A model generated the notes under the pieces. That model was not told the DNA's origin and ran no database searches. It saw nothing but the letters and a program-made list of their open reading frames with translations. A program made the position numbers and the translations under genes. Shown piece by piece: positions 6,685 to 63,060 of a stretch of 64,000 nt of DNA. The DNA is from Planctomycetota bacterium (GTDB lineage: Bacteria; Planctomycetota; SZUA-567; H5-PLA8): assembly GCA_038227875.1 (NCBI GenBank), contig JBBRPR010000007.1, forward strand, positions 151,838 to 215,837, given 5' to 3'. The stretch's first letter is position 1. Each line of letters begins with the position of its first letter.

Positions 6685-6691
6685 GCCATCC

Positions 6692-8640: not shown

Positions 8641-8648
8641 TGCCGTGC

Positions 8649-9628: not shown

Positions 9629-9667
9629 GAAAACTTCGCCTCCCTTTAGTTACTGCGTTTCTACAAC

Positions 9668-11676: not shown

Positions 11677-11706
11677 GGGTTCTTAATTCCGTCCCAGTTC
11701 GTCCGC

Positions 11707-13515: not shown

Positions 13516-13586
13516 GCTTTCCCCTGAATGAAGTCCAAATCGAAGCTGTAATCTTTACCAACCAAACTTTTCAGACCGCTGCTCAC

Positions 13587-14606: not shown

Positions 14607-14643
14607 CGAATTTCCCTTTTGAATCGAATCTGGATTTTGAATC

Positions 14644-14680
14644 CGCAGGGCACACAGGATTGAATCCCGTGTGCCCTGCG
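14644..14680. repeat. Intergenic hairpin (REP-like or mRNA stability element)
   Basis: CGCAGGGCACAC-AGGATTGAATCCC-GTGTGCCCTGCG. Confidence 0.55.
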
Positions 14681-14715
14681 CTCATCTTGCGAGTACTACG
14701 ATTTGTCGACGTGAC

Positions 14716-15564: not shown

Positions 15565-16210
15565 CGTTCTTGCTCCTTTGTAAAAAAAGCCTACCCGCTC
15601 GCTGACGCGAACCTGATGTTTCAATAGGCGCGGTTTGGTTTATCTCCCGCGCTTATACACTCAGGCCATAGGGACTGTCAATCGAAAGCGAGTGATCCCC
15701 AAACCAATCTTTAACTTCCGGCGTGCTATCGCGAATGTTTCGACTTGGGTCGAATCGCAACAACGCGCACAAATTAGTAGTCCGCTCGGTCAGGCAATGC
15801 AAGTCGCCGTCCATAACACAATGAGCTTCGGTAATATTCATCGCGCTGGGCAATGGGGAACCTTGTCGACAAGGTCTTCGTGCGACACGCCCTTACAAGG
15901 TGCGGCCCGTTCTTTGCTTCCTCAGAATTACGAAGGTTCGCAAGGTGGAGAAAGTGTGTCGTTACACTCCACTTATTGTGGCGAGCAGGGATAGAGTTTC
16001 GTGCAACGTGGCACGAAGCACTCTATAAGTTTTCACTTTCTGTTGACCGCTGAACGGCGCCCGATAAAGTTCCACACATTGCCGTTCATGTCCGTGAAGA
16101 CGAGTCCCAACGCTGAGCGTAAAATCAGCGCGGCGTTCGTTTGTCATTTTCATGCGTTTGGCGGACTGCACTTAAAAAGTCCGAAGCGATTACGCGAGGA
16201 AGTTCAGCTC

Positions 16211-17149: not shown

Positions 17150-17238
17150 GCCACGGCAAAACAGTCGTCGTCATCCATACAGTGAAAGTCAGTTCAACAC
17201 TCAAATGAAAATGTAAGGCGCAATACCGGAGAGAAATA

Positions 17239-20200
17239 ATGGCCAAGAAGGGCGGTCCGTCCATCAAGAACATGCACATTGCCTTCGGCGCAGCCAGTGT
17301 GGTGCTGGTGCTGGCGACGGTGTATGCATTCGTTCAGGACTACACACGCGATTTCACGCCGTACCAGAAGCAATACAACAAGTTGGAAATGGCGCGCCTC
17401 GAAAAGGAGAAAGCGACCGCCGACGAGCAGGTCCAGGAGCCGGATTACTCCAAGGAAGTTTCCGACGTCAACGACAAGATCAAAGCCGGCAAGGAAGCGC
17501 TCGACGCCAAGAAAGCCGACGTCGACAAGGCCAACGCCGACATCAAGACGATCGACAACAAGCTGCAGCTTGAAAAGCGCAACCTGAACTTCCTCAAGGC
17601 CGACTTACAGACGAAGAACTACGAAGTCGACGCCGCCAAGGACGAGAATTCGAAAGCCGCGCGTCGCAAAGAACGCGATGAGCTGAGCAAGAAGGTCGAT
17701 GAAAAATTCGCACTGGTCGAAGACCTCAAGGCTCAACGCGAAGCCGCGACGAAAGTGATCGTCGACGCCACGGCCGACTACAAAAACGCGCTCAAAGAAC
17801 ACGACGTTCTGCTCGCTTCCGAGACCGACCTGGCCGCCAAGATCAAGAAGGCCAAGGGCAGCACGATCATCAACCTGGCCAAGGACGCGCCGGGCATCAA
17901 TTTCATCGCGCCCAATTACCACATCGAACAGGCCGTGCTCACCGACCTTCCGGAAGACCGTTTCTTCGCCAAGACCATGCGCGTCGATCGCTGCGTCAGC
18001 TGCCACAAGGCCATCGAAAATCCCGACCCCAGCTACGCCAACCGGCCCGAAGGACTGGACAAGGTCCTGCGCTCGCACCCGCAACTGGATCTGTTCGTCA
18101 GCCCCAATTCCAAGCACCCATACAACAAGTTCGGCTGCACGGTCTGCCATCAGGGCAAACCGATGGGCACGACCTTCACCCGCGCCGCCCACTCTCCGCA
18201 GAATCCCGAGCAAGCTGAAGAATGGGAGAAGAAGTTCGGCTGGGAGTACCTGCACTATTGGGACAACAAGATGCTGCCCCTGCAGCACACGGAAGCCAGC
18301 TGCCTGAAGTGCCATCGCGGACTGGACGAAGTGCCGAAAGCCAGCAAGCTCAACGAAGGCCGCTACCTCTTCCGCGACCGCGGCTGCACCAACTGTCACA
18401 TGGGCGCCAGCGGTGACAAGGACATGGCCTGGGTCGGACGCATCGGACCGGACCTGCGCCGCATCGGCGAAAAGACGAACATCGAATGGGCTCGCAACTG
18501 GATCCTGAACCCCTGGGATTTCCGCGCCACCACCAAGATGCCGCGCTTCTTCGGCCTTGAAAATCGCACTGACGAAGACATGAAGCTCGCCGTCGGCAGC
18601 GACCACCTGCCGCGCGATCCGGTCGAAGTTGAAGCGATCGCCACGTACCTCTTCACCACCAGCAAGCTGCGCGAAACGCCCCCGCCTGACGCACCGGCCG
18701 GAGACGTGGAAGCCGGACGCCTGCTCTTCTCCGGCATCGGCTGCCTGGGCTGCCACGCCACGATCGATCAGAAGGATCCGAATAAGTTCGACGTCAACCA
18801 TCACGGCCCGGACCTGAGCCGCGTGGGCGAGAAGCTGACGCCCGGCTGGCTCTACGCGTGGCTCAAAGCGCCGCGCAATTACTGGCCGGAAACGAAAATG
18901 CCCAACCTGCGCCTCTCCGATAAGGAAGCCGCGGACCTGACCGCGTACCTGATGACCACGATGAAGGTGCCGGGCAAGAAACTCGAAGCACAGAAGGAAG
19001 CACCCGAAGACGCGTTCGATCAGGTGATCCGGGATAAGCTCGGCGCCACCACGCCGGTCGTGAAGTTGACGGAAATGCTCGGCGATCCGATCAAGCTGAT
19101 GGACGAGTCGCTCCACAACAAGGTCAAGATGGCCAGCAAGAAGGAAGCCGATGGCACCAGCAAGATGGTCGACACCGGTGAAGGTGAATGGACCGAAGGC
19201 CAGATCGCGAAGCTGAAGGAGTTCATCAACAAGAGCCCCAACCCCAAGCGCACCGCCAAGGCTTTCTACACGGGTGAAACGTTGATCCAGCATCACGGCT
19301 GCTTTGGCTGTCACAACATCCAAGGCTGGACCTTCGCGCCGCTGACCTGCGTCAATCTCGCCGGCGAAGCGGACAAGGATCTGGAAAAACTCGACTTCGG
19401 CAAGACCCAGACGGATAAGCATCCGATCGGGCATACGAAGTGGGACTGGTTCTACACCAAGATCGCCCGCCCCCGCGTCTACGACATGGGCAAGCTGGAA
19501 TTGATCAAGCCCTTCGACCGTCTCCGCATGCCGTGGTTTGGCTATTCCAAGCCCGAAGGTGAAGCCGCCAAGGAAGGCGATCATCATTTCCATCCGGAAG
19601 ACAATGCGGATCTGGAAAACAACAACACGCCCAACGGCTTGAATCCCCGCCAGATCGAACGGCTCGTGACCCACATCCTGAGCCTGACGATGGAACCGAT
19701 TCCGGTGGAGAAGCAGCACGCTCCGTCGCCGCAGGAAGTGGCCATCGACCGCGGCCACCGCGTCATCCGTGAATTGAACTGCACGGGCTGTCATCTCGTC
19801 GGCCTGAATGGAAGTCCCGAACCGGGTGGAGAACCGCTGCCGGAGGAAATTCCGGTCGAAGGTCTCGTCGCGTTGTTGCCACAGGCAGGACCGGGTTCAC
19901 CGTCAGAAATGCGCAAACCTGGAAACTTGTTCTACGTCGATGAAGACGTGGTCTCGCTGACCTACGAAGAGAAGACCGACGGCACGAAAGAACCGTTCAC
20001 GATGCCCGGCTACCTCAACGTGCTGCGCGGTTCGTACATTACCGACAAGACCGCGCCGATCATCCTGGCCGAAAAGCGCGTCCGCGCCAATTCGTTGCTG
20101 CCGTTCATTCCCGTGGGCTTCACCTTCCAGGACAAAGCGAATCCGAAGAAGGGTGTGGTCAGCTACGGCGATGTCGTCAGTGAAGCGCGCTTCCTCGAAG

Positions 20201-21231
20201 TCACGAAGTACTTCTACGCCGACGAGAAGGCCGCCTCCACGTCCTACGCGAAGCTGGCCAAGAAGTTCGTCGAGAAGGATGCCTACGAACGTCTGGCCGG
20301 TACCGATGCGCTGGCCAAAGCCCCTGGCGATGACGTCAAGCTCACAGCTCTGCAGATTGAAGAGCGCAAGGTCAACAAGACGTACTATGAACCGATGAAG
20401 ATCAAGGTCCGCTTCCAACGCGGCGAAGGCCGCATCGCCGATCACATGATCAAGTTCGAAACGGCGCGCGGAATCGACGGCGCCAGCCAGCAACAGGCGC
20501 CGCCCAGCCTGAGCTACGAAGGCGGCAAGGTTCAGCCGGACTGGCTGTACCAGTTCCTCCACAGCGTTTACCCGCTGCGCCAGGGGCTGTACATCCGCAT
20601 GCCCAGCTTCTGGACCGATGGGCCGTACTCGAAGTACAAGTCGATCTACCCGGCGGGACATCTGTCGGCGATCGATCCGCTCAAGCGCGGTACCGGCTTC
20701 GCCGGCGAGCCGCTGCCCTCGGCGGAAGCCGTCAAGCTGGCCGATCTCCCCGACGATGCCGCGCAGGTCGTCGATTACTTCATCGCCGACTCCGGTCAGA
20801 AGGCCTACGGCACACAACCCGGACCGGTGGGCGACACCGACAAGAAGCAGTATACCGACGGCCAGTTCCTGATCTTCGGCGACGAAAAAGCCGGCGGCAT
20901 GGGCTGCGTCAACTGTCACGCGGTCGGCACCAAGATTCCGAAGGAAGCGAAGTGGGCGCCGAATCTCGCCAGCGCCAAGCGCCGCCTCCGTCCGGAATGG
21001 GTCCAGCGATTCCTGATCTTCCCCGCGGCGATCTACCCGTGGACGAACATGCCCAACAATTTCCATTTCGATTGGGACAACTACAAATACTCCACCGATC
21101 CCAACAATCAGTTGAAGGGCATCCAGGAAGGCAACGAAGAGAACCTGAAGACGTGGGGTTCGAAGATCCAGGCCGCCAAGTTCTACCTGATGCACTCCGG
21201 CGAAGCTGAAATCGGCGGCGACGGGAAGTAA
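17239..21231 (+). CDS. Membrane-anchored octaheme cytochrome c (1330 aa)
   Basis: Eight CxxCH motifs: CVSCH, CTVCH, CLKCH, CTNCH, CLGCH, CFGCH, CTGCH, CVNCH. N-terminal TM and coiled coil, repeated GPDL...W...P...MP class-I domains. Confidence 0.92.
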   Translation: MAKKGGPSIKNMHIAFGAASVVLVLATVYAFVQDYTRDFTPYQKQYNKLEMARLEKEKATADEQVQEPDYSKEVSDVNDKIKAGKEALDAKKADVDKANADIKTIDNKLQLEKRNLNFLKADLQTKNYEVDAAKDENSKAARRKERDELSKKVDEKFALVEDLKAQREAATKVIVDATADYKNALKEHDVLLASETDLAAKIKKAKGSTIINLAKDAPGINFIAPNYHIEQAVLTDLPEDRFFAKTMRVDRCVSCHKAIENPDPSYANRPEGLDKVLRSHPQLDLFVSPNSKHPYNKFGCTVCHQGKPMGTTFTRAAHSPQNPEQAEEWEKKFGWEYLHYWDNKMLPLQHTEASCLKCHRGLDEVPKASKLNEGRYLFRDRGCTNCHMGASGDKDMAWVGRIGPDLRRIGEKTNIEWARNWILNPWDFRATTKMPRFFGLENRTDEDMKLAVGSDHLPRDPVEVEAIATYLFTTSKLRETPPPDAPAGDVEAGRLLFSGIGCLGCHATIDQKDPNKFDVNHHGPDLSRVGEKLTPGWLYAWLKAPRNYWPETKMPNLRLSDKEAADLTAYLMTTMKVPGKKLEAQKEAPEDAFDQVIRDKLGATTPVVKLTEMLGDPIKLMDESLHNKVKMASKKEADGTSKMVDTGEGEWTEGQIAKLKEFINKSPNPKRTAKAFYTGETLIQHHGCFGCHNIQGWTFAPLTCVNLAGEADKDLEKLDFGKTQTDKHPIGHTKWDWFYTKIARPRVYDMGKLELIKPFDRLRMPWFGYSKPEGEAAKEGDHHFHPEDNADLENNNTPNGLNPRQIERLVTHILSLTMEPIPVEKQHAPSPQEVAIDRGHRVIRELNCTGCHLVGLNGSPEPGGEPLPEEIPVEGLVALLPQAGPGSPSEMRKPGNLFYVDEDVVSLTYEEKTDGTKEPFTMPGYLNVLRGSYITDKTAPIILAEKRVRANSLLPFIPVGFTFQDKANPKKGVVSYGDVVSEARFLEVTKYFYADEKAASTSYAKLAKKFVEKDAYERLAGTDALAKAPGDDVKLTALQIEERKVNKTYYEPMKIKVRFQRGEGRIADHMIKFETARGIDGASQQQAPPSLSYEGGKVQPDWLYQFLHSVYPLRQGLYIRMPSFWTDGPYSKYKSIYPAGHLSAIDPLKRGTGFAGEPLPSAEAVKLADLPDDAAQVVDYFIADSGQKAYGTQPGPVGDTDKKQYTDGQFLIFGDEKAGGMGCVNCHAVGTKIPKEAKWAPNLASAKRRLRPEWVQRFLIFPAAIYPWTNMPNNFHFDWDNYKYSTDPNNQLKGIQEGNEENLKTWGSKIQAAKFYLMHSGEAEIGGDGK

Positions 21232-21258
21232 TCCGCTCGACGAAGTCGCAGGCAAATT

Positions 21259-21298
21259 CAAAACGGACAAGCGTGAAAGCGCTTGTCCGTTTTGCTTT
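21259..21298 (+). terminator. Intrinsic terminator
   Basis: CAAAACGGACAAGCG-TGAAAG-CGCTTGTCCGTTTTG then CTTT. Confidence 0.8.
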
Positions 21299-21343
21299 CA
21301 CACACGTGGTACTTTTACTCCGTCGCCGGTATACTCTGAAACC

Positions 21344-22129
21344 ATGCCCTCAAAGAAATCTCCGCCCAAGGAAATCGATCCCGTCGCCAGCAGTAGCAGC
21401 AAAGCGCTGACGCGTGGCTTGGAAATCCTGCGGTTGCTGGTCGAATCCGAGCCGATGACGTCAACAGAAGTCGCCGCCAAGCTGGGCCTGCATCAAAGTT
21501 CCGCGTCGCGCATTTTGAAAGTCTTGAGTACCGCCGGCTACGTACGCAAGCCGACGTACCAGAGCTTCACCGTCGACTACGGCGTGCTCACCATGGTCGG
21601 CCGCGCGGTCCACAATTTCAAAATGATGACCCGGCCGCGCGCGATCATCGCTCAGCTGGCCGAAAAGCATCCCGATTTCCTGATCACGCTCGGCACGCTC
21701 TGGCAGGGCGAGCTGCTCTACCTGCTCCGCGCGCAACACGGCCAGGACGTCATCTCCGGCTACGCCGGCAGCTATCCCGTGCACCTTTCGACCGTCGGCA
21801 TGCGCCTGCTGCTCGATCGACCGGAAAAAGAAGCGATCGAAGTCCTCAACGCCAGCAAGCGACGCTACGGCTGGGAACGCCCGACGCCGCTGGTGCCGCA
21901 GACGCCCGCGGAGTGCCTCAAGATCGTCCGTACATTTCTGCGCGAGGACTGCCTCCCACTGGTGAATTGGCAGAACAAGACGACCTTCGGCGTCTCCATT
22001 CCGATCAGCGTGCCAGGTGAACCCGTTTGCGCGCTGGCCTTCTCCGGCAAACCCGGCAGCGAACCGGTCGATCAAATCCTGCTCTACCTGCACGATGGAA
22101 GGCGCGCCATCGAAGCCGCGCTGACTTAG
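21344..22129 (+). CDS. IclR-family transcriptional regulator
   Basis: ALTRGLEILRLL, HTH (EVAAKLGLHQSSASRIL), PVHLSTVG effector-domain motif. Confidence 0.85.
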   Translation: MPSKKSPPKEIDPVASSSSKALTRGLEILRLLVESEPMTSTEVAAKLGLHQSSASRILKVLSTAGYVRKPTYQSFTVDYGVLTMVGRAVHNFKMMTRPRAIIAQLAEKHPDFLITLGTLWQGELLYLLRAQHGQDVISGYAGSYPVHLSTVGMRLLLDRPEKEAIEVLNASKRRYGWERPTPLVPQTPAECLKIVRTFLREDCLPLVNWQNKTTFGVSIPISVPGEPVCALAFSGKPGSEPVDQILLYLHDGRRAIEAALT

Positions 22130-51440: not shown

Positions 51441-51562
51441 AATCAACATCATAAGGCAACTTTACCTTATGGTCAGCGCGTGAGGTGGGCAAACAAACTC
51501 GCTCTCTCCCTTTTGACGGAAGAGAGCGCGATTGCGAGGTAAAAGTGCGAACCGCCGTCAAT

Positions 51563-51606: not shown

Positions 51607-54150
51607 TCAACTCCGGCAAAACACCCTGAAATCCATCTGATCTCCCGCAAACAACGTGTCCGCTGCCTCCAACGTCGCGAGGTACTGCATGTTGATCTCG
51701 CGGATCGCAATCTGCCTCAGGAGTTCCTTGGCGCGATCGATGTGCTTGATCAGACGCACTTCCGCGTAGCGGCTGCTCTGGTCCATGGAAATCAGGAACG
51801 GCCAGTCGCTCGACTGCGCCAGCATCATCTCGCGCGCCGCCTGGTTGAGCGCCCGGGCCTCAAGGCCCGTCGCGTCCTTGCGGTCGGTGGCCAGAGCCGA
51901 CATCTCGTTGCTGATCCGGAAGAGGTGCCGGTAGACCCACGTGTTCGGACGGAACGTGCGGCCGTCCAGCCACGTTTCGAACGTCGCCTTCTTGCCCCAC
52001 GTCGACGCGCCGGGCATCAGCAGTTGGTGTCGCGAATGTTCCGCCAGGAATTCCGTCGGCGTCACCGGACGCACTTCCGACTGGTCGCAGCACATCTTTC
52101 GGAAAACGGTCTCGATCCAGTGCGGACCTTCCTCCCACCAGTGGCCGAACAGTTCCGCGTCGTATGCGGAAACGGCGATCGGCTTGGTCTTGTATTTACT
52201 CCGCAGGAAATTCGCCTGCGTCCCGCGGTGGAAGACAAACTGCCCCGCCTGTTCGTTGACCGCGTCCCACGCCCAGCCCGGGTTGTACGGCTGCTTCTCG
52301 TTCAGCGCCGACGTCTTGCTCGTGATGCGATAATACTTCAGCCCCGTGTTGCGGCGGACATTGGCGGTCTTGAAATACTCGGGGAGATAATCCCAGCCCG
52401 CGTCGTACCCCAGGTCGCGGTACCACTCCTTGTAGCGCGGGTCGCCCGGATAACCGGCCTCTCGGCTCCAGACCTGAGCACGCGTGTCTTCATCGATCCC
52501 AAACACCGCGAGATTGTTGTGCGTCACCACCGGCCGGTAGGTGTTGAACCACGAGCGCGTGTTGCCGCGCGTGATGCCGGTGGAATTCATGATCGTCCAC
52601 TTGATGCCTTCGGCCGCGAGGAAATGGTCCAGCCCTGGCGTGAACGCATTTTCAGGCAGCCACATGCCGCGCGGCCAGCGCCCAAAAATGCCCTGGTACT
52701 GGCGGCAGGCGAGCTGAATGTGGCCGCGCACGATCTCCGGGGAATGCAGGTAGTACGGCAGGATCGGATGCGTGCCGGCGCAGATCATCACTTCCAGCTT
52801 GCCCATGTCCTGGAAGTCGCGGAAGCCGTTCAGAATATTTCCGCCGTACGCTTCGAACACTTTCCGGGCGTTGTGCAGACGGTCGAGAATCGTTTCGATC
52901 GTGTGCTGGAACACCTTGCCCTTGTTGTTGTGCAGTTCCTTCTCGGCCAGCCGGATCGATTCGTGCAGGAAGACGCGGTAGCGATCCTGCAGCGGTTCGT
53001 CGCAGAGCATGCTCATCAGCGGCGCGGAGATGGAAACTGTAAGGCGGAAGTCGATCTTGTCGCGCTCCAGGTTCCACATCATCTTCAGCAGCGGCGCGTA
53101 GCAGCTCGTGATCGCCTCAAACAACCACTGCTCTTCCAGTGCGACCGGGTATTCCAAGTGCCGCACGAACGGCAGATGCATGTGCAGGATCAGTGCCCAG
53201 TAACCGCTCTCTTCCTTCTTTTCGGTGCTGCGGCGTTTCCAGTATTCGTACACGTTGAAACGCCAGTCGTTCTTGTCGACAGGAATGATCTGGCCTTCGT
53301 AGTCGACCTTGATCTCACGCGTGTCGCCCTGAGTCTCGTGCTTCATCTCCACTTCCGGCAGCGAGCGGAATCGATTCGAGACGGCGACCGGTTCAAAAAA
53401 CTTCGTGCCCTTCGCGCGGTAGCCCAGCTCCGCTTCGTGTTCGACATCGGGCTCGATCTTGATCCAGTAACTGTTCTTCGCATCGAGGTAGTCTTCGATG
53501 TCCCACGTGTGCCCGGTGTCGGTACGGCGGATGCGCAGCACGAGATAATTGTGATCGAAGAAATTCTGCCCATACTTCTGCTTCAGATGTTCGCGCGCGC
53601 CGGAGCTCACTTCGTAAAAGATGAACGCATGGCGCGCGTTCGCGACCAGCCCATACAGATACGTCTGATTGTACTGCTCGCCGATGAACGGCTCGTTCTT
53701 CAAAATCTGTTCGGCAAGGTCGGAGTCAATGGGCGGCGGCAGTGGGTCCTCATGTCCGTGCTCAGTCGTATCCTCGTGCGCCGATTCAAATTCAGGCCGG
53801 CGCGAGTGCGGCCGCACGTCCTCGGGCTCACCGGTCATCTGCGGCACGGGTACGGGCGTAGCGGCGGGCGTGGTCACGGGCTCCTTGCTGAGCGGCAGAG
53901 TCTCGTTGGTGATCTCGGTGGACTTCACAACCTTGGTCTTGGCCGGCTTGGCAGCTTTGGCCGGGCGCACGGACTTCGGCGCTTTCGGAACGTCCTTCAC
54001 TACCCGCGCAGCGGGGGCGGCAGGTGCGGGCGCTGAAACCGCGGCGACGGGCTTGCCTTTCTTCGCAGCGCTCTTTTCGGCCGTGCGCGGCGCGTGTCCA
54101 TTGGCACCGGACTCCTTCGCCAACGGCGGATTCTTGCGGCGGGACGCCAT
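51607..54150 (-). CDS. GH57 1,4-alpha-glucan branching enzyme with N-terminal low-complexity tail and DUF4912-like domain
   Basis: HMHLPFVRH, EQWLFEA, WLPE (nucleophile), YDAELFGHWW (acid/base), QAARE.MLAQSSDWPF. Alternative start 54189. Confidence 0.9.
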   Translation of the reverse strand: MASRRKNPPLAKESGANGHAPRTAEKSAAKKGKPVAAVSAPAPAAPAARVVKDVPKAPKSVRPAKAAKPAKTKVVKSTEITNETLPLSKEPVTTPAATPVPVPQMTGEPEDVRPHSRRPEFESAHEDTTEHGHEDPLPPPIDSDLAEQILKNEPFIGEQYNQTYLYGLVANARHAFIFYEVSSGAREHLKQKYGQNFFDHNYLVLRIRRTDTGHTWDIEDYLDAKNSYWIKIEPDVEHEAELGYRAKGTKFFEPVAVSNRFRSLPEVEMKHETQGDTREIKVDYEGQIIPVDKNDWRFNVYEYWKRRSTEKKEESGYWALILHMHLPFVRHLEYPVALEEQWLFEAITSCYAPLLKMMWNLERDKIDFRLTVSISAPLMSMLCDEPLQDRYRVFLHESIRLAEKELHNNKGKVFQHTIETILDRLHNARKVFEAYGGNILNGFRDFQDMGKLEVMICAGTHPILPYYLHSPEIVRGHIQLACRQYQGIFGRWPRGMWLPENAFTPGLDHFLAAEGIKWTIMNSTGITRGNTRSWFNTYRPVVTHNNLAVFGIDEDTRAQVWSREAGYPGDPRYKEWYRDLGYDAGWDYLPEYFKTANVRRNTGLKYYRITSKTSALNEKQPYNPGWAWDAVNEQAGQFVFHRGTQANFLRSKYKTKPIAVSAYDAELFGHWWEEGPHWIETVFRKMCCDQSEVRPVTPTEFLAEHSRHQLLMPGASTWGKKATFETWLDGRTFRPNTWVYRHLFRISNEMSALATDRKDATGLEARALNQAAREMMLAQSSDWPFLISMDQSSRYAEVRLIKHIDRAKELLRQIAIREINMQYLATLEAADTLFAGDQMDFRVFCRS

Positions 54151-54196
54151 CTCTTTGTTCCTCTCCGACCCGGCTTTGCGCTTATTCATTCAACTC

Positions 54197-56305
54197 TCAA
54201 TCCTGGAGCGGTGAAATTAAAATGACCGCCGTACGCGGCGTCAATATATAGTGATCCGCCGGTTTCAACGGCACTGCGTTCTGTTCCGGAACAATGTCCT
54301 GCGGCGTCGGCAGCCCCGTGTCCACCAGGCGCCTCCAGCGCCAGCGGCCTTCGTGCGGCGGGATCATGAACTTCTTGTTTTCCCAGTGCCCGTTGAACAT
54401 CACGTACAGATCCGGCTGCGCATGCCAACCATGCATTTGGAATGCCAGCGTGCGGCTGATCCCCGTCCAATCCGGATCGCCGACCTTGATGCCATGCCAC
54501 GTCACGCGATTGCAGAACTGCTCGCGGTTCAGCGCGAAGTACTGCTTGCGCAGCGCGATCATCAACTGCGTGAAGCGCAGCAGCCCCGCGTTCTTCTGCA
54601 TCAATGACCAATCCATCCACGACAATTCATTGTCCTGACAATACGCATTGTTGTTGCCACTCTGCGTGCGTCCGAATTCATCGCCTTGAGACAACAGCGG
54701 CACACCCTGCGAAATGAGCAGCATGGTCAAAAAGTTGCGCATCTGCCGCTGGCGCGTGGCGAGAACGATCGGGTCGTCCGTCTCGCCTTCCACGCCGCAA
54801 TTCCAACTGATGTTGTCGCTCCACCCGTCCTGATTTTTCTCGCCGTTGGCCAGATTGTGTTTCTGCGAGTAGCTCACCAGGTCGTTGAGCGTAAAGCCGT
54901 CGTGACAGGTGATGAAGTTGATCGAATGGTATGGATGCCGCGACGAGTCACCGTAAATATCGAGGCTCCCGCAGATGCGCTTGGCAATCGCGGAGGCCGC
55001 GCCAGGCTCGCTGCGGATGAACCGGCGCGTGTCGTCGCGGTAGACGCCGTTAAGCTCCGCCCAGCGCCCCCAGACGGGAAATTTCCCGAGCTGCGAAAGT
55101 CCGGCCGCGTCCCACGCCTCGGCGATCAGCTTCGATCCCGCCAGCAACGGATGCTCGGCAATGTGCTGAATCAGCGGCGGATCCTGCAGCACTTCGCCAT
55201 TCGGCCCGCGCCCCAGAATCGAGGCCAGATCGAAACGGAACCCGTCGACATGCATTTCCGCCACGAGGTACGTCAAGCTGTCGATGATCAGGTCGCGGAC
55301 CAGCGGATGGTTGCAATTGAGCGTGTTGCCGCAGCCGGAAAAATTGTAGTACCGGCCGGTCTTGTCGAGCATGTAATAGATTGAGTTATCCAGCCCGCGA
55401 AAACTGATCGTCGGTCCGTTCTCGTTGCCTTCCGACGTGTGATTGTAGACCACATCGAGAATCACTTCGATGCCGGCGCGATGGAAGGTCTTCACCATCT
55501 CTTTGAATTCGCGGACCTGTTCGCCGGGGCTCACCGCGTACGAGGCCTTCGGCGCGAAGAACGACATCGGCGCGTAGCCCCAGTAATTCTTCAACTGCTC
55601 GCCGGTCTGCGGATTTTTATGCGTCTGGTCGAGCTCATCGAATTCCAGGATCGGCATCAGCTGCACCGCTGTGATGCCCAGCTGCTTGAGATGCGGAATT
55701 TTCTCGCACAGTCCCAGGAACGTCCCCGGGTTCTTCACCTCCGACGACGGATGCTGCGTGTACCCGCGCACGTGAAGTTCGTAGAGCACCGTCTGCGCCA
55801 TCGGCGTCGAGAGCGGCACGTCGCCTTCCCAATCAAAATCATCGAACACCAGCCGCCCGCGCCGGGTCAGGTGTCCGCCGTGCGGACCATGCGGCACATC
55901 CGGCACGCCCCACTGCGACCCGCCGCTGATCGCGCGCGCGTACGGATCGATCACGATGGCCGTGGGATCAAAGCGGTGCCCGGCTTTCGGCGCGAACATG
56001 CCGTTGACGCGGTAGGCGTAGAGCATGTCGGGCTTCACATCGAACACGAAAATATGCCAGATGTCGCCGGTCTTGTGGCTGGCCGCTTCGAGCGGGATCT
56101 CAGCGATCGGTTCTTCCTGGTCGGACGTGTACAGCAGCAGCGTCACTTCCGTCGCATGGCGCGAAAAAATCGCAAAGTTCACACCCCGCGGCCGCACCGT
56201 CGCCCCAAATGGGCGCCCATGACCACGATCGGTGGCAAAGGTGATCTTACTGACAACGCTTTCGCGCAATCCGGAGGTCCTGGCTTCAGAAAGAGTGCCC
56301 GACAT
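54197..56305 (-). CDS. glgX: Glycogen debranching enzyme (isoamylase, GH13)
   Basis: GVNFAIFS, NYWGY, DVVYNHT, DGFRFDLAS, AEAWD, NFITCHDGFTL, GNNNAYCQDN. Confidence 0.97.
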   Translation of the reverse strand: MSGTLSEARTSGLRESVVSKITFATDRGHGRPFGATVRPRGVNFAIFSRHATEVTLLLYTSDQEEPIAEIPLEAASHKTGDIWHIFVFDVKPDMLYAYRVNGMFAPKAGHRFDPTAIVIDPYARAISGGSQWGVPDVPHGPHGGHLTRRGRLVFDDFDWEGDVPLSTPMAQTVLYELHVRGYTQHPSSEVKNPGTFLGLCEKIPHLKQLGITAVQLMPILEFDELDQTHKNPQTGEQLKNYWGYAPMSFFAPKASYAVSPGEQVREFKEMVKTFHRAGIEVILDVVYNHTSEGNENGPTISFRGLDNSIYYMLDKTGRYYNFSGCGNTLNCNHPLVRDLIIDSLTYLVAEMHVDGFRFDLASILGRGPNGEVLQDPPLIQHIAEHPLLAGSKLIAEAWDAAGLSQLGKFPVWGRWAELNGVYRDDTRRFIRSEPGAASAIAKRICGSLDIYGDSSRHPYHSINFITCHDGFTLNDLVSYSQKHNLANGEKNQDGWSDNISWNCGVEGETDDPIVLATRQRQMRNFLTMLLISQGVPLLSQGDEFGRTQSGNNNAYCQDNELSWMDWSLMQKNAGLLRFTQLMIALRKQYFALNREQFCNRVTWHGIKVGDPDWTGISRTLAFQMHGWHAQPDLYVMFNGHWENKKFMIPPHEGRWRWRRLVDTGLPTPQDIVPEQNAVPLKPADHYILTPRTAVILISPLQD

Positions 56306-56602: not shown

Positions 56603-58203
56603 TTAGCGCGGCGCCCCGCTGCAATACAGCTCATAATCCAACTCCGGAAACACCGCGTCCATGTACTCCAGCGTCGCCAACCGCTCCTCGTCATACGCGT
56701 GCTTTTCAAACCCGCTGATCAGATCGTGAAACCGGTTCAGATGGTCCGCGAACCGCCGCCGCGCGTACTGCTCCGTCGTGCCGTTGGTGATGATGAACGG
56801 CCAATCCGAACTCTGCGCCAGCAGCAGTTCTCGCGCCGCCTGGCAGAGCACCCGCTTGTCGAAGGCGCTGAGCGTCTGCGCTTTCGCCGAGTCCGCGTTG
56901 CGGCGCATCAGCACCGCCGCTTCGTGAAGAGGCCGCCACATCCAATCGGTCTTCGGATTCACCCAATGCTCGCTGTACCCGTTGCGCCCCCAACTGCTCG
57001 GCGCCGGCGTCGCCTGCTGCTGAATGGATAAGCGGAGAGGTATTCGCCTGGCGTGCCGACCGCCAGGTCGCCGCCGTTTTGATGGACTTCGCGCAGTACG
57101 TAGTAAATCCACTGCGGCCCTTCGAACCACCAGTGCCCGAACAACTCCGCGTCATACGGCGAAACAATGATCGCCGGAAACGGCATCCGCGACGACGCGC
57201 GCTGAACCTGCTCGCGGCAGCGCCCCACAAAATCTCGCGCCTGCCGCTCCGCCGTCTCGCGACCGCGGTCGGGATTGTACAGATGCTTGTCGTTGGTCGC
57301 ACCCGTGATGCGGTGGTATTTGAAGCCCGTGTGCGTCCGCACGTTTTTAGCGTACTGAAATTCCTCGAGGTAACTCTGGTCCAGATCAAAGCCGATGTCG
57401 CGGTGGTATTCGCGGTAACTGGGATCGCCCGGGTACCCGACCTTATCGGACCAGACCAGCCGCGACGTCGTCGGGCTGCGCCCAAACGCCGCCACGCCGC
57501 TGTTGCAATACAGTGGCGCATTGATTCCGAACAACGGTTTGGGATCCGCGTGCTCGATGCCGTGCGCGTCGGTGAAGAAATAGCGGATGCCCGCCTCCGC
57601 CAGAATCGCATCGACGCCCGGATAGTACGCGCACTCCGGCAGCCACATCCCCGCCGGTTTCTTCCCGAAGAGCCGTTCGTGTTCCGCGACCGCCAGAAAA
57701 ATCTGCGCCCGCACCGACGACGGTTCGGAACTCAACAGCGGCAGAAACCCATGCGTCCCCGCGCAGGTAATCAGCTCCAGATTGCCGGAGGCTGCGTACT
57801 CCTTAAAAACGTTGAGCACCTGCAGGCCGCAGCGGTTGACGAAGCATTCCTTCGCTTCCGAAAACAGCGTCCAGTACATCTTCGAGAGCGCATTGACGTC
57901 CGGCCAGTGCTTCGTCCGCTCAATCTCCCGCTCCGCCAGCCGCAAGCTCATCTCGATATGCTGAACGTAGCGGTCCTGCAGCAGCGGATCGTTGAGCATC
58001 GCCGCCAGTGGCGGAGAAACGGAGAGCGTCAGCTTGAAATTAATCTTCTCATCCCGCATCCGATCAAAAAACTTGATCAGCGGAATATACGTTTCCGAAA
58101 GCGCCTCGAACAACCAGCGCTCCTCCAGAAACCGATCATACTCCGGATGCCGCACGTAAGGCAGATGCGCGTGCAGCACGAAGCTGAGATAGCCCTTTGG
58201 CAT
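56603..58203 (-). pseudogene. GH57 branching enzyme (~533 aa) split by a 1-bp deletion near 57026 (pseudogene or sequencing error)
   Basis: Starts MPKGYLSFVLHAHLPYVRH, with WLPE and YDAELFGHWW in one frame and SSWG, QAARELLLAQSSDWPF in another. Adding one base restores EYLSAYPIQQQATPAPSSWG. Confidence 0.88.
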
Positions 58204-58223: not shown

Positions 58224-59990
58224 CTAACGCGCCCCGACCGAAAGCAGCGCACTCAACTGCTCGGCCGCGCAATTCCACCCAAACCGCGACTCCAGCGTCT
58301 TGCTGCCGTTCTCCGCAACCTTCTTGCGCAGGCCTTCGTCGAACAGCAACCGCTCCACGCCCCAGACCATGCTGCCCTCGTTGGCGTAGGTGACTACGCT
58401 GTTCTCTTCGTGCTTCAGCAGCGAACCGATCATCGCCTGCGTGCTCAAGACCGGGCGCTTCGCGGCCCACGCGGCGAGGATCGGCCACTCTTCCGTCTTC
58501 GAACGGCTCGGCACCGCGATCACATCGGCCGCCTGAATCAAATCGAGCAGCTCGCTGCCGCCCACATGCCCGACGATCCGCACTGCGTGTTCCAGAAGAA
58601 GGTACCGCGCGTGCACGCGCAGTGGCCACTGCAGCGGGCCATCGCCGACAAAAATAAAGCGCGCCTGCCGGTTGTTCTTCAGAATCTGCGGCACGGCCTT
58701 CATCAGTACGTCCGGACCATGGCGGTCGTCGAGATCGCCGATGAACAGCACCGTCGGATCGATCGGCCCGATCGTGTACTTCGCCTTGATCGATCCCGGA
58801 TCCAGCTCCGCCACAATCGGTCGCGTCGAGAACGGATGATGCGCATAGACAATCTTCGAACCGCATTCCGGAACCGCCGTGATCGCATGCGAGGCCGCCG
58901 CGTCCTGCTGAATCAACACGCTCGTCGCAGCGCGCAGGCCGTCGGTTTCGATCTTCAGAATCTCCTGGCTCAGCGCGCTCTTCATGTCGCTGCGCTGTGT
59001 CTCCAGCGAATGGATCGAGAAAATCGTCCGCAGCCCCAGCCCCGCGAATTCAGCGATCAGCGGAATCGACGCCCACTCGTGTCCCATCAACACCGCGTTC
59101 GACGGAATCCCATTCGGAAACGCCGCGCGGACCGCTTTCATCCCCCGCCGCGCAAACGAGCGCACGCGATCGATCAAATCGTCCGTAACATCTTCCCCGA
59201 CGACGTGAAGTTCAACGCCGCTGGCCACGTTCGCGAATGCCCCGCGCGAGAAGATGTGAACCTTCGTCCCCTGCTCCACGAGATGCTTCGCCGTATTCGC
59301 GACGTACGTCCCGATCGGCGTCTCCGCGTCTTCGTAGCAGAACACACACAGGGTCGCGGCTTCCGTTGCTTCGACCACGCGCGTCGTCAGCGGCACGACG
59401 CTCTTGGGCGTCTCCGGCGGCACGCTCTTTTTCGCGGCCGGTTTCTTCGCCGGAGCGTCCACCACAGGCGCCGGAATCGGAGCCGGAATCACTGGCACAG
59501 GCGTTTCAATCTTCTTCGCTTCAACCACCGCGGGAGCCGCCTTCGCGACCGGCGCTGCCACGGGAACTGGCGCGGGCGGAGCCACTGGCGCGGCCGCAAG
59601 CTTCAACGCCACGACCGGCTCCGGGCTCTTCTCGACGACGGGCGCTGTCGCCACGACCGACTCCGCCTTCTTCTCAATCACCGGCGCTTTCGCCACCACA
59701 GGAGATGGAGCGGGAGCAGAAACAGGAGCCGGCGCGGGAGCCGCAACCGGCGGCTTGGCCGCGGGGACAGGCGTACGCCGCTTGCGCGTCGACGGCGCGC
59801 GCTGCGCGATGCTGTTGGAAATCTCCATCACCAATTGATCCGCCGCGTCACTGCCGGTGGACTTCTTGGCATTCTTCACAGAACCTGTAGTGGATCTGCT
59901 CATTGATTTCTCCTTCGCCTTACCGTTCGCGCCGCCGTCGGCCTTCGGTTCCGCCTTGGCGTTCGCGCTATATTTTTTCGCTCGACTCAC
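58224..59990 (-). CDS. GT4-fold protein with ~200-aa Ala/Pro/Lys/Val-rich N-terminus and degenerate catalytic motifs
   Basis: GHEW, IKAKYTIGPIDPTVLFIG, VGDG. EX7E region reads PSRSKTEEWPILAAW. GTG start overlaps the upstream TGA. Confidence 0.82.
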   Translation of the reverse strand: MSRAKKYSANAKAEPKADGGANGKAKEKSMSRSTTGSVKNAKKSTGSDAADQLVMEISNSIAQRAPSTRKRRTPVPAAKPPVAAPAPAPVSAPAPSPVVAKAPVIEKKAESVVATAPVVEKSPEPVVALKLAAAPVAPPAPVPVAAPVAKAAPAVVEAKKIETPVPVIPAPIPAPVVDAPAKKPAAKKSVPPETPKSVVPLTTRVVEATEAATLCVFCYEDAETPIGTYVANTAKHLVEQGTKVHIFSRGAFANVASGVELHVVGEDVTDDLIDRVRSFARRGMKAVRAAFPNGIPSNAVLMGHEWASIPLIAEFAGLGLRTIFSIHSLETQRSDMKSALSQEILKIETDGLRAATSVLIQQDAAASHAITAVPECGSKIVYAHHPFSTRPIVAELDPGSIKAKYTIGPIDPTVLFIGDLDDRHGPDVLMKAVPQILKNNRQARFIFVGDGPLQWPLRVHARYLLLEHAVRIVGHVGGSELLDLIQAADVIAVPSRSKTEEWPILAAWAAKRPVLSTQAMIGSLLKHEENSVVTYANEGSMVWGVERLLFDEGLRKKVAENGSKTLESRFGWNCAAEQLSALLSVGAR

Positions 59991-61852
59991 GTCAGCTCCG
60001 CAAATTTTTCAGCGCAGAGCTCCAGGTACCTCCGCGCGACATCGCTCCATTGAAACACTCCGGCCTCAACCTGCTGCCGGCCAGCCTCACCCATCCGCAC
60101 CGAGTGCGCCGGATCGCTAAGCACCCGGTCGATGGCCCAGTTCATCGAACCGGGATTGTCGTACGTTGCCAGCCCGGTGTGGTCATGCTTGACCAGGTAC
60201 CCCACCCCGCCATGCGTCGCGATCACCGCCTTGCCCGCCAGTCGCGCCCAGCGCAGTGCCTCGCCGTCGCCGGAATAGCGATGCCGCGCCGGAAAGACCA
60301 GCGCCTCCGCCGCTCGCACCGCGCGCTTGAAAAACTCGCCGTCCACCTTGCCGAAAATCTTCATCGCATGATGCACGCCCAGCCGGTGCGCGCGGTTGTA
60401 CAGCGCGTCATGCATCCGCCCCATCCCGATAAACGCGATCCGCAGGTCCTTCGCGCGATGGAGCGCACTGGGCAGCGCTTCAATCAGCAGATCCGGTCCC
60501 GCGCCATGCTCCAGCGGCCCCACGAACAACAACACGCGGTCGATCGGCCCAAAGCCCAGTTCCTGCTTGACCTTCCCCACATCCAGCGGCGTCTCCCATT
60601 CGTTGGGCAGCCGTCCCTGGATCGGAAACGAAACCAGCGGCGCGCCAGGCAGTTTGCACGCGTCGATCGCCTTCGCGCGCAGATACTCCGGCATTAACAC
60701 CACCTTGAACGCCTGAATGATCTCGCGTTCGACCTGCTCGATCTCCAGCGACAGCGGCGTCGCCTCTCCGCCGTTGCGGCGCGTAAGCTCCAGCGACGTC
60801 ACCGACAGGATCGCCGGCCGCCGCGTAATCCACGGCGCCTTTCCCGCGATCCATTCGTGGACGTGAATCAAATCGAAGTGCGGCAGCGTCGCCAGTTTCT
60901 TCTCAACACCGGTCGCGAAACGCATGGCCTGTTTCACCGGCGCGGCCGTGAGATCGATCGCGATTGGATGATACACGACCCCGTCGGCTTCGCGCTCCGC
61001 CGTGAAATCCTCGCGCTCCGGCGAGAAAACATGAACGCTGTGCCCCGCCGCGCACTGCTCCTTCGCCAGCTCGCTCACCGCCGCAACATCGAACGTGAAC
61101 GTCGCGATGCGCAGCGGATGGCGCAGCACCGGCTTGCGCAGCTCGGTGAGGATGCGGTCCTGTTCCCACAGATTCCCAATCGGCGTGCACTGCAGCGTGT
61201 CGTCGACCAGCAACCCCGCCTGGCTGTTGCGCGACGAAGGGGATTCCGGCGGAAATGGCGTCGTGAACGAACGCGCTGCCGCGATGAATTCACCATTGCG
61301 CAATTCGAAGCCGACTTCAGCCAGCTGCGTCGTCCCCGGCCGCGGCAGATGAAAGAAGATGTGTCCGCAAATCTGCGGCAGCGACAACGTCGAAATGTGG
61401 TGCGCGTTCAAGCCGTTGAAAATGATGAACGAAACATCGTAGAGCTTCAGCACCATGCGGCAGTTGGTCCACGCCGCGCCCCGCGACTTAGCCGTCGCGT
61501 CGATCCACTCTTGCTTGATCCGCCAGTGCGCGAAACCGTGCTTCGGAGCCACCCAGTGCAAGGCCACCGCACTGGTTTCCGGCACAAACAACGACGCCGG
61601 ATTTTTCTCACCCACTTCCCAGCCGACGCGCCGCATCGTTTCCTGGCTGGGAACGTTTGACGCCGCTTCGCTTCGCCCGGAATTCAGGCCCGGCCCCGCA
61701 TTTGTGCCCGGTCCCGAGTTCGTGCTCGGCCCCGAATCCGTGCTCAGAAGGGAGAGCGAGCAAAATTGAAGCGCCGGCATGGAAGACATTTTGTCCCTGA
61801 CTTTTCTAGGCGTTAACTGTCGCTTGGAATCACGGCCCCTTTTTTTAGCCAT
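59987..61852 (-). CDS. DUF4912-like domain fused to degenerate GT4-fold domain
   Basis: LKLYDVS...FNG.NAH, EVGF...GEF..AARS, HVHEW, LGFGPIDRVLLFVG. EX7E region reads PARHRYSGDGEALRW. Start may be 61789. Confidence 0.8.
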   Translation of the reverse strand: MAKKRGRDSKRQLTPRKVRDKMSSMPALQFCSLSLLSTDSGPSTNSGPGTNAGPGLNSGRSEAASNVPSQETMRRVGWEVGEKNPASLFVPETSAVALHWVAPKHGFAHWRIKQEWIDATAKSRGAAWTNCRMVLKLYDVSFIIFNGLNAHHISTLSLPQICGHIFFHLPRPGTTQLAEVGFELRNGEFIAAARSFTTPFPPESPSSRNSQAGLLVDDTLQCTPIGNLWEQDRILTELRKPVLRHPLRIATFTFDVAAVSELAKEQCAAGHSVHVFSPEREDFTAEREADGVVYHPIAIDLTAAPVKQAMRFATGVEKKLATLPHFDLIHVHEWIAGKAPWITRRPAILSVTSLELTRRNGGEATPLSLEIEQVEREIIQAFKVVLMPEYLRAKAIDACKLPGAPLVSFPIQGRLPNEWETPLDVGKVKQELGFGPIDRVLLFVGPLEHGAGPDLLIEALPSALHRAKDLRIAFIGMGRMHDALYNRAHRLGVHHAMKIFGKVDGEFFKRAVRAAEALVFPARHRYSGDGEALRWARLAGKAVIATHGGVGYLVKHDHTGLATYDNPGSMNWAIDRVLSDPAHSVRMGEAGRQQVEAGVFQWSDVARRYLELCAEKFAELT

Positions 61853-61896
61853 GGGGCTTCCCAGCTGAACACGTTATTGCGTGGCGATTTTGAAGT

Positions 61897-63060
61897 TCAC
61901 GCAACGCCGGTATAAACCTGCTCCGTCTGTTCGGCGATGCTGTCCCAGCTGAACGCCGCATCCACCGCCGCGCGTCCGTTCTTGCCCATCCAGCGGCACT
62001 TCTGGTGATCCGCCAGCAGCGTCCCCAGCCCCCAGCCCACCGAATCCGGCGTGTCGTCGACCTGCAACCCGTTCACGCCATGCCAGACAAACTCCGCCGG
62101 CCCGCCGCGCTTGGTGCTCACCACCGGCTTGCTGGCGCTCCACCCTTCCAGGATCACAATGCCGAACGGTTCGTTGCGGCTGGGCACCGCGACAATGTCG
62201 CAGGCCTTGAACAGATCCACCACTTCCCGCCCCTGCTTGCCGCCCAGCAACCGCAGCGCGTGAGCCACATTCAACTGATGCGCCATCGACGCGACTTCGT
62301 GCCGCATATGCCCGTCGCCGACGAAGACGAATTTGGTGTTGGGATAAAACTTCAGCACCGATGGCATCGTGCGAACGAGAATGTCCGGTCCCTTCTGCAC
62401 CACCATGCGCCCGACGAAGAGCACCGTCGGATCCAGCGGCCCGATCGCGTACTGTTTCTTGATCGCGCCGACATCCAGCTCGTGGTCGAAGGCGCTGGCG
62501 TTGACGCCGTTGTAGATCACCTTCGTCTTCTCGTCGGGAAGCTGGTAGAGCCAGCGGATCTCATCGCGGAGCTGATTGGAGACGGTGATCACGCGGTCGG
62601 CGCAGTACGTGCCGTGGCGTTCGTGGTCGGTGACGCGCTGCGCCTGTCCGGCGAAGTGGCGGTTGCCGTTGCGGCCGTACTCGGTCGAATGCATCGTCAG
62701 CACAGATTTGCGCGGCCGCGCTTCCTTGATCCAGACGACCGTATTCGACGCCAGCCAGTCATGAGCATGAACGATGTCGAACGTGCCGACGTGATCTTCG
62801 ACCGCGAGGAATTCCTTCACGAACGCGCGGCACATGTTGTTGATCTCGTCGACGAAATTGGGGCTCAGCGTGAATCCGCAGCGGTGGTAGTGCACGCCGT
62901 GAATGTTGTCGTACGCCTTCTGATTATGGCCGACGCGCGTAAAGACGTGAACTTCGTGGCTGCGCCGTTCCAGCGCCGCGGCCAGTTCTGTCACGTGGAC
63001 GCCCACGCCACCCACCGGAATGGAATGGAGCGACTCCCACGAAAATAAAGCAATACGCAT
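61897..63060 (-). CDS. Glycosyltransferase family 4 (glycogen/alpha-glucan synthase candidate)
   Basis: GGVGVHV, HAHDW, HSTE, VGRMVVQKG, PSRNEPFGIVILE. GAGGAGG upstream of ATG 63060. Confidence 0.92.
   Translation of the reverse strand: MRIALFSWESLHSIPVGGVGVHVTELAAALERRSHEVHVFTRVGHNQKAYDNIHGVHYHRCGFTLSPNFVDEINNMCRAFVKEFLAVEDHVGTFDIVHAHDWLASNTVVWIKEARPRKSVLTMHSTEYGRNGNRHFAGQAQRVTDHERHGTYCADRVITVSNQLRDEIRWLYQLPDEKTKVIYNGVNASAFDHELDVGAIKKQYAIGPLDPTVLFVGRMVVQKGPDILVRTMPSVLKFYPNTKFVFVGDGHMRHEVASMAHQLNVAHALRLLGGKQGREVVDLFKACDIVAVPSRNEPFGIVILEGWSASKPVVSTKRGGPAEFVWHGVNGLQVDDTPDSVGWGLGTLLADHQKCRWMGKNGRAAVDAAFSWDSIAEQTEQVYTGVA

Follow-up and report, generated by a model that had tools for sequence, protein, structure and literature searches.

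Gene content of the locus

The window, a 64,000-nucleotide stretch of a Planctomycetota genome (assembly GCA_038227875.1, contig JBBRPR010000007.1, positions 151,838 to 215,837), ends in six co-directional minus-strand genes, running from the glycosyltransferase gene G1 through a second gene for a GH57 enzyme. The order G1-G2-G3-GH57 branching enzyme (BE)-GlgX-second GH57 enzyme is that of a conserved planctomycete alpha-glucan (glycogen) operon, headed by three co-directional genes of glycosyltransferase family 4 (GT4) type at 58224-63060. Judging from their sequences, the products of the second and third genes, G2 and G3, belong to one old GT4-derived lineage that has no nucleotide-sugar site and is kept by selection. 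The features, all on the minus strand, are:

61897-63060, minus strand: G1, an intact GT4 and putative alpha-glucan synthase using a nucleoside diphosphate glucose (NDP-glucose) (387 amino acids from MRIALFSW; Pfam, motifs)
59987-61852, minus strand: G2, DUF4912 plus a donor-site-dead GT4 core (621 amino acids; Pfam, AlphaFold2 model), consisting of a disordered N-terminus (residues 1-65), a DUF4912 beta-sandwich block (61157-61657) and the GT4 core (59990-61120)
58224-59990, minus strand: G3, an Ala/Pro-rich disordered N-terminal extension plus a donor-site-dead GT4 core (58227-59354) (588 amino acids from GTG)
56603-58203, minus strand: BE57a, a GH57 1,4-alpha-glucan branching enzyme in two frames, with a 1-base frameshift near 57030 (Pfam, tblastn)
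54197-56305, minus strand: GlgX, glycogen debranching enzyme (NCBIfam TIGR02100, 702 bits against a cut-off of 640.9)
51607-54189, minus strand: BE57b, a second GH57 branching enzyme with a long Ala/Pro/Lys-rich N-terminus (Pfam GH57, BE_C)
51500-51528, minus strand: terminator-like hairpin 3' of the last cluster gene (11-bp stem, 7 GC pairs, T-rich tail)

A check of the open reading frames (ORFs) places G1, G2 and G3 where a previous sequence-only reading had seen three consecutive co-directional GT-B genes, and Pfam finds GT4/GT1 domains in all of them. The C-terminal GT1 domain scores above the cut-off in G1, G2 and G3, and the N-terminal GT4 domain in G1 and G2; G3 is matched by Glyco_trans_1_4 at 3.3e-21, and its N-domain reaches 21.5 bits, below the cut-off of 28.5. 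The peptides that had been quoted are all present: IKKQYAIGPLDPTVLFVG, GRMVVQKG and NEPFGIVILE in G1, VKQELGFGPIDRVLLFVG and GPLEHGAG in G2, and IKAKYTIGPIDPTVLFIG and GDLDDRHG in G3. The description of the three as close paralogs was too strong, however. BLASTP aligns G1 with G2 at 28.0% identity over 382 amino acids (E 2.4e-37), G1 with G3 at 28.8% over 364 amino acids (E 2.5e-47) and G2 with G3 at 30.6% over 369 amino acids (E 3.5e-34), and the G2 family spans many phyla. By these alignments, the three proteins are homologous far beyond chance, yet distant paralogs.

The GTGA at 59987-59990, in which the stop codon of G2 overlaps the GTG start of G3, does exist, but the translational coupling deduced from it is doubtful, as it is not certain where G3 starts. 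In the gene call of the collection itself (P0121), the protein has 559 amino acids and begins with an ATG 29 codons downstream, at ~59903. The closest G3 relatives, P0122 and P0123, begin ~20 residues ahead of the conserved motif AAEQLVxEIxNSIAQR, in agreement with this ATG. With a start at ~59903, an 83-nt gap would separate G3 from G2 and there would be no overlap.

Loss of the donor site in G2 and G3

In GT4 enzymes, the EX7E motif makes the sugar and ribose contacts, and an Arg/Lys pair contacts the diphosphate of the NDP-sugar, as described in part of PMC8760489. These positions were compared across 77 related loci, which were collected with 10-kb flanks from one-genome-per-species contigs; genes were identified by BLASTP with the window proteins, and taxon labels are those of the records. 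The loci include 50 near-type loci and 18 distant loci, in which a DUF4912-GT4-like protein shares 26-30% identity with G2. Ten key columns were scored: two Gly, HxHDW, Arg, Lys and two Glu.

G1 is canonical at all ten columns in 41/41 orthologs, window included, with donor-site losses in 0/41. The second Gly of the loop, present in G1 throughout (41/41), is found in 0/38 near G2 and 0/36 G3 proteins. In the 38 near G2 proteins, the Arg column is occupied by Pro (38/38) and the first Glu column by Arg (38/38), while the Lys column contains Ala in 36, Arg in one and Ser in one (Lys in 0/38) and the second Glu column Leu in 36, Met in one and Trp in one (Glu in 0/38). The 36 G3 proteins have Asp (34) or Asn (2) in the Arg column, Tyr (28) or His (8) in the Lys column, a Glu in the first Glu column in 1/36, and Ala (34), Met (1) or Ser (1) in the second Glu column, which lies within a conserved PWWPIQAAW segment. 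The loss extends to more remote relatives: among 20 G2-type proteins directly followed by a BE (the 18 distant ones plus those of L024 and L046, both also counted among the 38), Arg, Lys and either Glu were found in 0/20 each, the protein of L024 being the sole one with Arg at the Lys column. The same three counts are 0/34 each in 34 DUF4912-GT4 representatives. The claim that G1 alone keeps the Gly loop, Arg/Lys and EX7E, and that G2 and G3 lack all three, thus stands. Lacking the features by which active GT4 enzymes are recognised (the Gly-Gly loop, the Arg/Lys of GRxxxxKG and EX7E), G2 and G3 are, on their motifs, not canonical transferases.

The replacement motifs are themselves conserved: GPLEHAAG[V/P]D and PSRYRVPFDDAVVDLAR in G2, GDLxERYGPD and PSRExTPWWPIQAAW in G3. 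More generally, G2 shows the pattern G[P/E]xxHAxGxD and a conserved D[D/E], and in G3 a Trp-rich segment and a Tyr have been acquired. Column identity in the segments homologous to the Arg/Lys and EX7E motifs is 0.79-0.88 in G2/G3, against a core mean of 0.62-0.68, and the former Gly-loop segment is the least conserved, at only 0.50-0.57. The Arg/Lys segment, with a net charge of +2.0 in G1 as calculated at the sequence level, is negative in G2 (-1.0) and G3 (-1.5). The HxH[D/E]W motif is retained in G2, with the first His in 37/38 near and 19/20 distant proteins and the Trp in 38/38 near ones; the whole motif is kept in 19/20 of the G2 types directly followed by a BE and HSTExER in most of them, both nearly as in G1. 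The conservation of the remodelled cleft suggests ligand binding, and since its segments exceed the protein average in conservation, the term scaffold, which the sequence-only reading had used for G2 and G3, may be too weak.

The same conservation could also reflect enzymes with a new chemistry, such that G2, G3 or both use a donor other than a nucleotide sugar, or transfer or hydrolyse glucan. In each family the replaced segments show little or no variation, they include the G[P/E]xxHAxGxD and D[D/E] of G2 and the PWWP with Tyr/His of G3, and the acceptor-side motifs are kept in G2. However, the near and distant G2 subfamilies share no conserved basic residue that could hold a phosphate, and the poor conservation of the Gly loop also argues against a new chemistry. 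No GT-B enzyme is known to work without the residues of the Gly loop, Arg/Lys and EX7E, which counts against a new chemistry as well. An identical pattern of loss marks GT-B proteins that are proven to be inactive, as reported in part of bioRxiv 10.1101/219105. A new chemistry of G2 or G3 is considered rather improbable.

Conserved gene order and a family shared across phyla

Of the 50 near-type loci, 43 are labelled Planctomycetota and seven carry other labels, which derive from the record titles of metagenome-assembled genomes (MAGs). G1 adjoins G2 upstream in 45/47 near loci with room for it, G3 adjoins G2 downstream in 42/44, and a GH57 BE lies downstream of G2 in 40/40 loci with 3 kb of room. 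The full order G1-G2-G3-BE is found in 37/39 near loci with room on both sides. Two loci labelled Polyangiaceae, L024 and L046, are the exceptions: they have neither G1 nor G3, and the BE comes immediately after G2. GlgX is present 3' of the BE in most near-type loci.

The labels of the distant loci include Methylococcales, Candidatus Moduliflexota, Chloroflexota, Nitrospirota, Thermodesulfobacteriota, Verrucomicrobiota, Alphaproteobacteria and Polyangiales. In 17/17 distant loci with room, the G2-type gene has a GH57 BE as its immediate downstream neighbour, with an 8-nt gene overlap in 9/17, and neither G1 nor G3 was found beside it in these 17 loci, whose flanks were seen on both sides or in part. 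The two-gene module of DUF4912-GT4 and GH57 BE was confirmed by Pfam in 6/6 loci checked, which have unrelated neighbourhoods; DUF4912 scored 49.8-72.7 bits in the G2-type proteins of these six loci. DUF4912 plus dead GT4 lies upstream of a GH57 BE in 57/57 loci with enough sequence, directly except where G3 intervenes. G2-type proteins without G1 or G3 occur in two near and 17 distant loci, and the BE follows directly in 19/19. The G2 family, defined by DUF4912 and a dead GT4, is present in at least eight labelled phyla.

Two of the distant loci contain additional alpha-glucan genes. In L052 (labelled Chloroflexota), a GT5 GlgA at 13512-14984 directly follows the dead-GT4/GH57 pair, and in L051 (labelled Nitrospirota), a TreS-maltokinase fusion at 18049-21444 is encoded ~5 kb downstream of the pair.

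The order of the planctomycete genes raises the question of whether G1, G2 and G3 together constitute one heteromeric alpha-glucan synthase, with the dead paralogs as structural or allosteric subunits of G1. In line with this idea, the three genes are adjacent in this order in 37/39 loci, G1 and G3 come and go together, both being absent in L024, L046 and the 17 distant loci, and pairs of a catalytic and an inactive GT-B subunit are known, such as GtfA/GtfB as described in part of bioRxiv 10.1101/219105. Yet many phyla have G2-type proteins but no G1 beside them, in each case together with a GH57 BE. The joint presence or absence of G1 and G3 counts as one event on the tree, and the GTGA coupling of G2 and G3 is doubtful. 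A heteromer centred on G1 is regarded as rather unlikely. As G2-type proteins are always found with a GH57 BE, and often without G1 and G3, the best-supported partner is the BE or its glucan, and not necessarily G1.

Selection and phylogeny

The ratio of nonsynonymous to synonymous substitution rates (dN/dS) was estimated by the Nei-Gojobori method (NG86) on 11 pairs of loci, dS being saturated in most pairs, and ranged from 0.013 to 0.13 for G1, 0.11 to 0.30 for G2, 0.08 to 0.29 for G3 and 0.03 to 0.14 for the BE. One unsaturated pair, L008/L013 (dS ~0.2-0.26), gave 0.013 for G1, 0.147 for G2, 0.111 for G3 and 0.032 for the BE. These values indicate that G2 and G3 are under purifying selection, ~2-10 times more relaxed than that on G1.

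The faster evolution of the G2 and G3 proteins is the one observation in favour of decaying copies or functionless annotation artefacts. This explanation is rejected by the conservation data and has virtually no probability: the ORFs are intact, the core is alignable in 38 (G2) and 36 (G3) sequences, window included, dN/dS is 0.08-0.30, the gene order is kept across orders of Planctomycetota, and each family has its own invariant motifs. The earlier view that G2 and G3 are maintained pseudoenzymes agrees with these data in so far as maintenance is concerned. It had called for a comparison of orthologs, in which gene order was kept in 37/39 loci, the loss of Arg/Lys and EX7E proved to be conserved in every ortholog examined and dN/dS was well below 1, with neither decay nor a retained EX7E.

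A quick maximum-likelihood tree was calculated for 76 GT cores, comprising 12 each of G1, G2 and G3 (every third locus), 20 G2 types of the distant set and 20 generic GT4 proteins taken from weak search matches. G1 is monophyletic, with a support of 100 in the Shimodaira-Hasegawa-like approximate likelihood ratio test (SH-aLRT), while the near and distant G2 types group with G3 in one clade without the motifs (SH-aLRT 98), which is the sister group of G1 (92). This clade makes a single loss of the donor site in a common ancestor plausible. A recent tandem duplication of G1 was rejected as the origin of G2 and G3, on the basis of the 28-31% identity and of the placement in the tree.

Domain architecture of G2 and G3

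G2 contains DUF4912 (PF16258; 59.7 bits against a gathering cut-off of 29.4) in addition to its GT4 domains, and 100 orthologs share 42-97% identity with it. The AlphaFold2 model of G2 has a predicted local distance difference test (pLDDT) score of 80 and consists of disordered residues 1-65, a beta-sandwich and one long helix at ~70-225, and a GT-B core. Foldseek matched the model to MshA, sucrose-phosphate synthase and BshA with E-values of 3e-22 to 1e-16, and also to GlgM; among solved structures, those closest to the core are MshA, sucrose-phosphate synthase, BshA, archaeal glycogen synthase and GlgM.

A loop at residues ~560-575 of G2 (window ~60128-60175), TYDNPGS[M/I]xW, is invariant or nearly so in near and distant G2 types. 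Its counterpart is VDDTPDSVxW in G1 and a looser Y-x-x-E-x-S-x-V-W in G3. Located away from the classical motifs, the loop could be a candidate interface.

At least 120 orthologs of G3 were found at 46-72% identity, in which the N-terminal extension is variable, with a median of 67 amino acids. G3 (window 59376-59990) and its closest relatives (P0122, P0123, P0126 and P0128) share the AAEQLVxEIxNSIAQR motif, an Arg run and a variable Ala/Pro-rich tail, and in distant G3 orthologs the extension is shorter and unrelated in sequence.

The DUF4912 block was also modelled alone, with a pLDDT of 89. A comparison of this model with the PDB by Foldseek gave weak generic matches to FN3- and immunoglobulin-like folds, with template modelling (TM) scores of 0.33-0.42, and no carbohydrate-binding module; a sequence search of the PDB with the domain gave no match. 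On this basis, the assignment of DUF4912 as a carbohydrate-binding module was dropped. The DUF4912 profile has 3397 matches at E <= 0.001 among 1.84 billion representative proteins, 111 of them at E <= 1e-30, and 34 of the 150 best matches contain a GT core. DUF4912 also occurs as 2-10 tandem copies, as in P0241, P0242, P0256, P0265 and other proteins of ~700-1630 amino acids; among 24 such proteins scanned, 18 have an N-terminal PstS-like PBP_like_2 domain and one has WD40 repeats. Of the 150 best profile matches, the 34 with a GT core are the representatives scored above for the donor-site residues. One of these 34, P0262 (750 amino acids), combines an N-terminal DUF4912 with a GT core bearing the G3-type motifs LGHEW, SSLERQR, GELDEAHGPD and DWPILAGW, and its sequence hints that the G3 branch once carried DUF4912.

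G1, the intact glycosyltransferase

G1 is a protein of 387 amino acids also in the database's own gene call (P0391), and nearly all of its best 120 relatives, at 77-100% identity (77-92% without P0391 from the window itself), have exactly this length. It matches Glycos_transf_1 (1.9e-34) and Glyco_transf_4 (3.1e-27) in Pfam, and its nearest solved structures are MshA (6e-26), GlgM (2.5e-22) and BshA. G1 fails the GT5 GlgA model TIGR02095, scoring 76.3 bits against a cut-off of 328 (G2 18.5, G3 20.5). It is likewise below the cut-off of the GlgM-type model glgA_Coryne, TIGR02149 (161.4 bits over the full length against 302), and of the NCBIfam model of MshA (139 against 462). By these scores, G1 is a relative, and not a member, of the GlgM-type family. 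Genomic context and motifs indicate that G1 is most likely a canonical retaining GT4 that makes alpha-1,4-glucan from an NDP-glucose.

Other genes of the operon and the window

The two frames of BE57a contain the GH57 domain (7.4e-38) and BE_C (1.3e-31), respectively. Comparison by tblastn with the intact L019 and L027 orthologs locates the frame switch at ~57030, a site with no long homopolymer. The halves share 61-70% identity with the L027 enzyme and 54-70% with the L019 enzyme, and as they are still so well conserved, the frameshift either arose very recently or stems from the assembly. Comparable splits of the BE occur in several loci from long-read MAGs (L004, L021, L044, L045 and L050).

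BE57b matches GH57 (4.6e-34) and BE_C (8.3e-26), and its gene follows GlgX also in L019 and L027. Its N-terminal extension of ~325 residues consists of Ala/Pro/Lys-rich low-complexity sequence followed by a DUF4912-like block, which scores 27.4 bits, below the cut-off of 29.4, and aligns with the G2-type DUF4912 profile in hhalign at a non-significant E of 0.063. A 'Rosetta stone' argument, by which BE57b would carry the same DUF4912 as G2, was not used in view of these two values. WLPE and DAELFGHWW, the segments with the catalytic Glu and Asp, are retained in both BE57a and BE57b.

The hairpin at 51500-51528 is the strongest match of a terminator scan in the region, as a match to the consensus. 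No GlgC, GT5 GlgA or GlgE was seen among the window ORFs scanned. The remaining window is ordinary chromosome, encoding a cytochrome oxidase cluster, GatB, NAD synthase and sigma-54 regulators. The stretches 5514-15624 and 16001-21231 together hold the cytochrome c oxidase genes (a SCO1/DUF420 fusion, COX1, COX2, COX3, CtaA and CtaB) and, adjoining them, the genes of a Rieske protein and a multi-haem cytochrome c protein of 1330 amino acids.

Proposed role of G2 and G3

The loss of the donor site, the selection on the G2/G3 lineage and its linkage to the BE are real and conserved. Taken together with the behaviour of comparable inactive proteins, they tilt the evidence towards G2 and G3 being non-catalytic proteins that bind glucan, partner proteins or both, and in this way tune glycogen synthesis. 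The lost donor-site residues have been replaced by other conserved ones, acidic in G2 and aromatic plus acidic in G3. In the proposed mechanism, binding would occur via the remodelled, presumably negatively charged cleft and via acceptor-side residues that have been kept (in G2, HxH[D/E]W and S-x-E-x-x-R). G2 and G3 could thereby hold chains of alpha-glucan and link to, or tune, the branching reaction of the GH57 enzyme and, in Planctomycetes, perhaps also elongation by G1. The BE would be the evolutionarily constant partner of the dead lineage and G1 a partner added in Planctomycetes.

Several observations weigh against a binding role of this kind. A new catalytic activity would account equally well for the strong conservation seen in the remodelled cleft, and most near G2 proteins have an Asp one residue before the second Glu column, such that a small register shift could keep one contact. 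The DUF4912 block resembles no carbohydrate-binding module in the PDB comparison, and its occurrence as tandem copies in PstS-like proteins identifies it as a general module that is not specific to glycogen. The estimates of selection come mostly from pairs with saturated dS, and the grouping of G2 with G3 derives from a quick tree search in which both are fast-evolving branches, making long-branch attraction possible. Finally, the substrate of G1 is deduced from context and motifs, and G1 scores too low for either the GT5 GlgA or the GlgM-type model.

A tentative extension of the binding role is that the DUF4912 plus dead-GT4 proteins might be obligate, so far unrecognised partners of GH57 BEs across phyla, forming a two-protein branching machine that was expanded in Planctomycetes to a four-protein assembly of G1, G2, G3 and BE. 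Here, the fossil glycosyltransferase would supply chain-end or glucan binding, or else a new chemistry in its remodelled cleft.

Comparison with known systems

A close parallel is provided by the O-GlcNAc transferase pair GtfA/GtfB and by Asp1 of the accessory Sec system of Streptococcus, in which, as in the operon described here, the gene of an active GT-B/GT4 enzyme lies beside that of a GT-B paralog with losses in the cleft. According to part of bioRxiv 10.1101/219105, GtfB and Asp1 are inactive GT-B proteins without the two positive residues and the essential Glu; they have a negative cleft and bind carbohydrate or the substrate on which an active partner works. G2 and G3 share this pattern of loss and the charge shift at the level of sequence. 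In contrast, GtfA/GtfB serve protein glycosylation, while the locus of G1-G3 is devoted to storage glucan. G2 also shows no specific sequence relation to GtfB or Asp1, its nearest structures being MshA, sucrose-phosphate synthase and BshA. Unlike GtfB and Asp1, it carries DUF4912, and its conserved neighbour is a BE of the GH57 hydrolase type and not an active GT.

G2 and G3 would also have a functional likeness to STARCH SYNTHASE 5 (SS5) of plants, also an inactive paralog of an alpha-glucan enzyme that was retained and shapes glucan synthesis by binding. SS5 is described in part of PMC10801857 as a noncanonical, nonenzymatic starch synthase that binds MRC and acts in granule initiation. It differs from G2 and G3 in being a relative of GT5 and in working in eukaryotic plastids. 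Literature searches, mostly of open-access texts without supplements and judged mainly by titles and abstract openings, found no bacterial glycogen counterpart of SS5. In the ISA1/ISA2 isoamylase heteromer, too, a catalytically inactive paralog has been kept and shapes starch synthesis.

MshA, BshA and the maltose-1-phosphate synthase GlgM, which are GT4 enzymes of thiol and alpha-glucan pathways, have the same fold as G1 and G2 and are their nearest solved structures. G1 keeps all donor-site residues but stays below the cut-offs of the GlgM-type and MshA models, whereas G2 and G3 are without the donor site. BE57a and BE57b, both with matches to GH57 and BE_C, are comparable to the GH57 BEs of the Thermus and Thermococcus type. 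The characterised GH57 BEs are described as working alone. Unlike these characterised enzymes, the BE is preceded by a dead GT4 gene here and in 57/57 related loci with room.

Bacterial glycogen synthesis is usually described in terms of GlgC, GlgA and GlgB as free enzymes. The literature searches mentioned above found no description of a family combining DUF4912 with a dead GT4. In a 2024 review (PMC11046441), the roles of GT4 genes inside glycogen clusters are considered unclear, and the part of it that was covered does not describe the DUF4912-dead-GT4 family.

Implications for storage glucan synthesis

What is new is that a whole GT4-derived family gave up nucleotide-sugar binding and has nevertheless been kept beside GH57 BEs in at least eight labelled phyla, and that this dead-GT4 lineage was duplicated in Planctomycetes, where an intact GT4 has been added to it. 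Should the dead proteins prove to bind glucan or the BE, the names 'glycogen synthase' and 'glycosyltransferase' that annotation pipelines have given to relatives would be wrong, and starch-processing GH57 BEs might behave differently in the presence of their natural partner. In that case, bacteria would shape their storage glucan with non-catalytic paralogs, as plants do with SS5.

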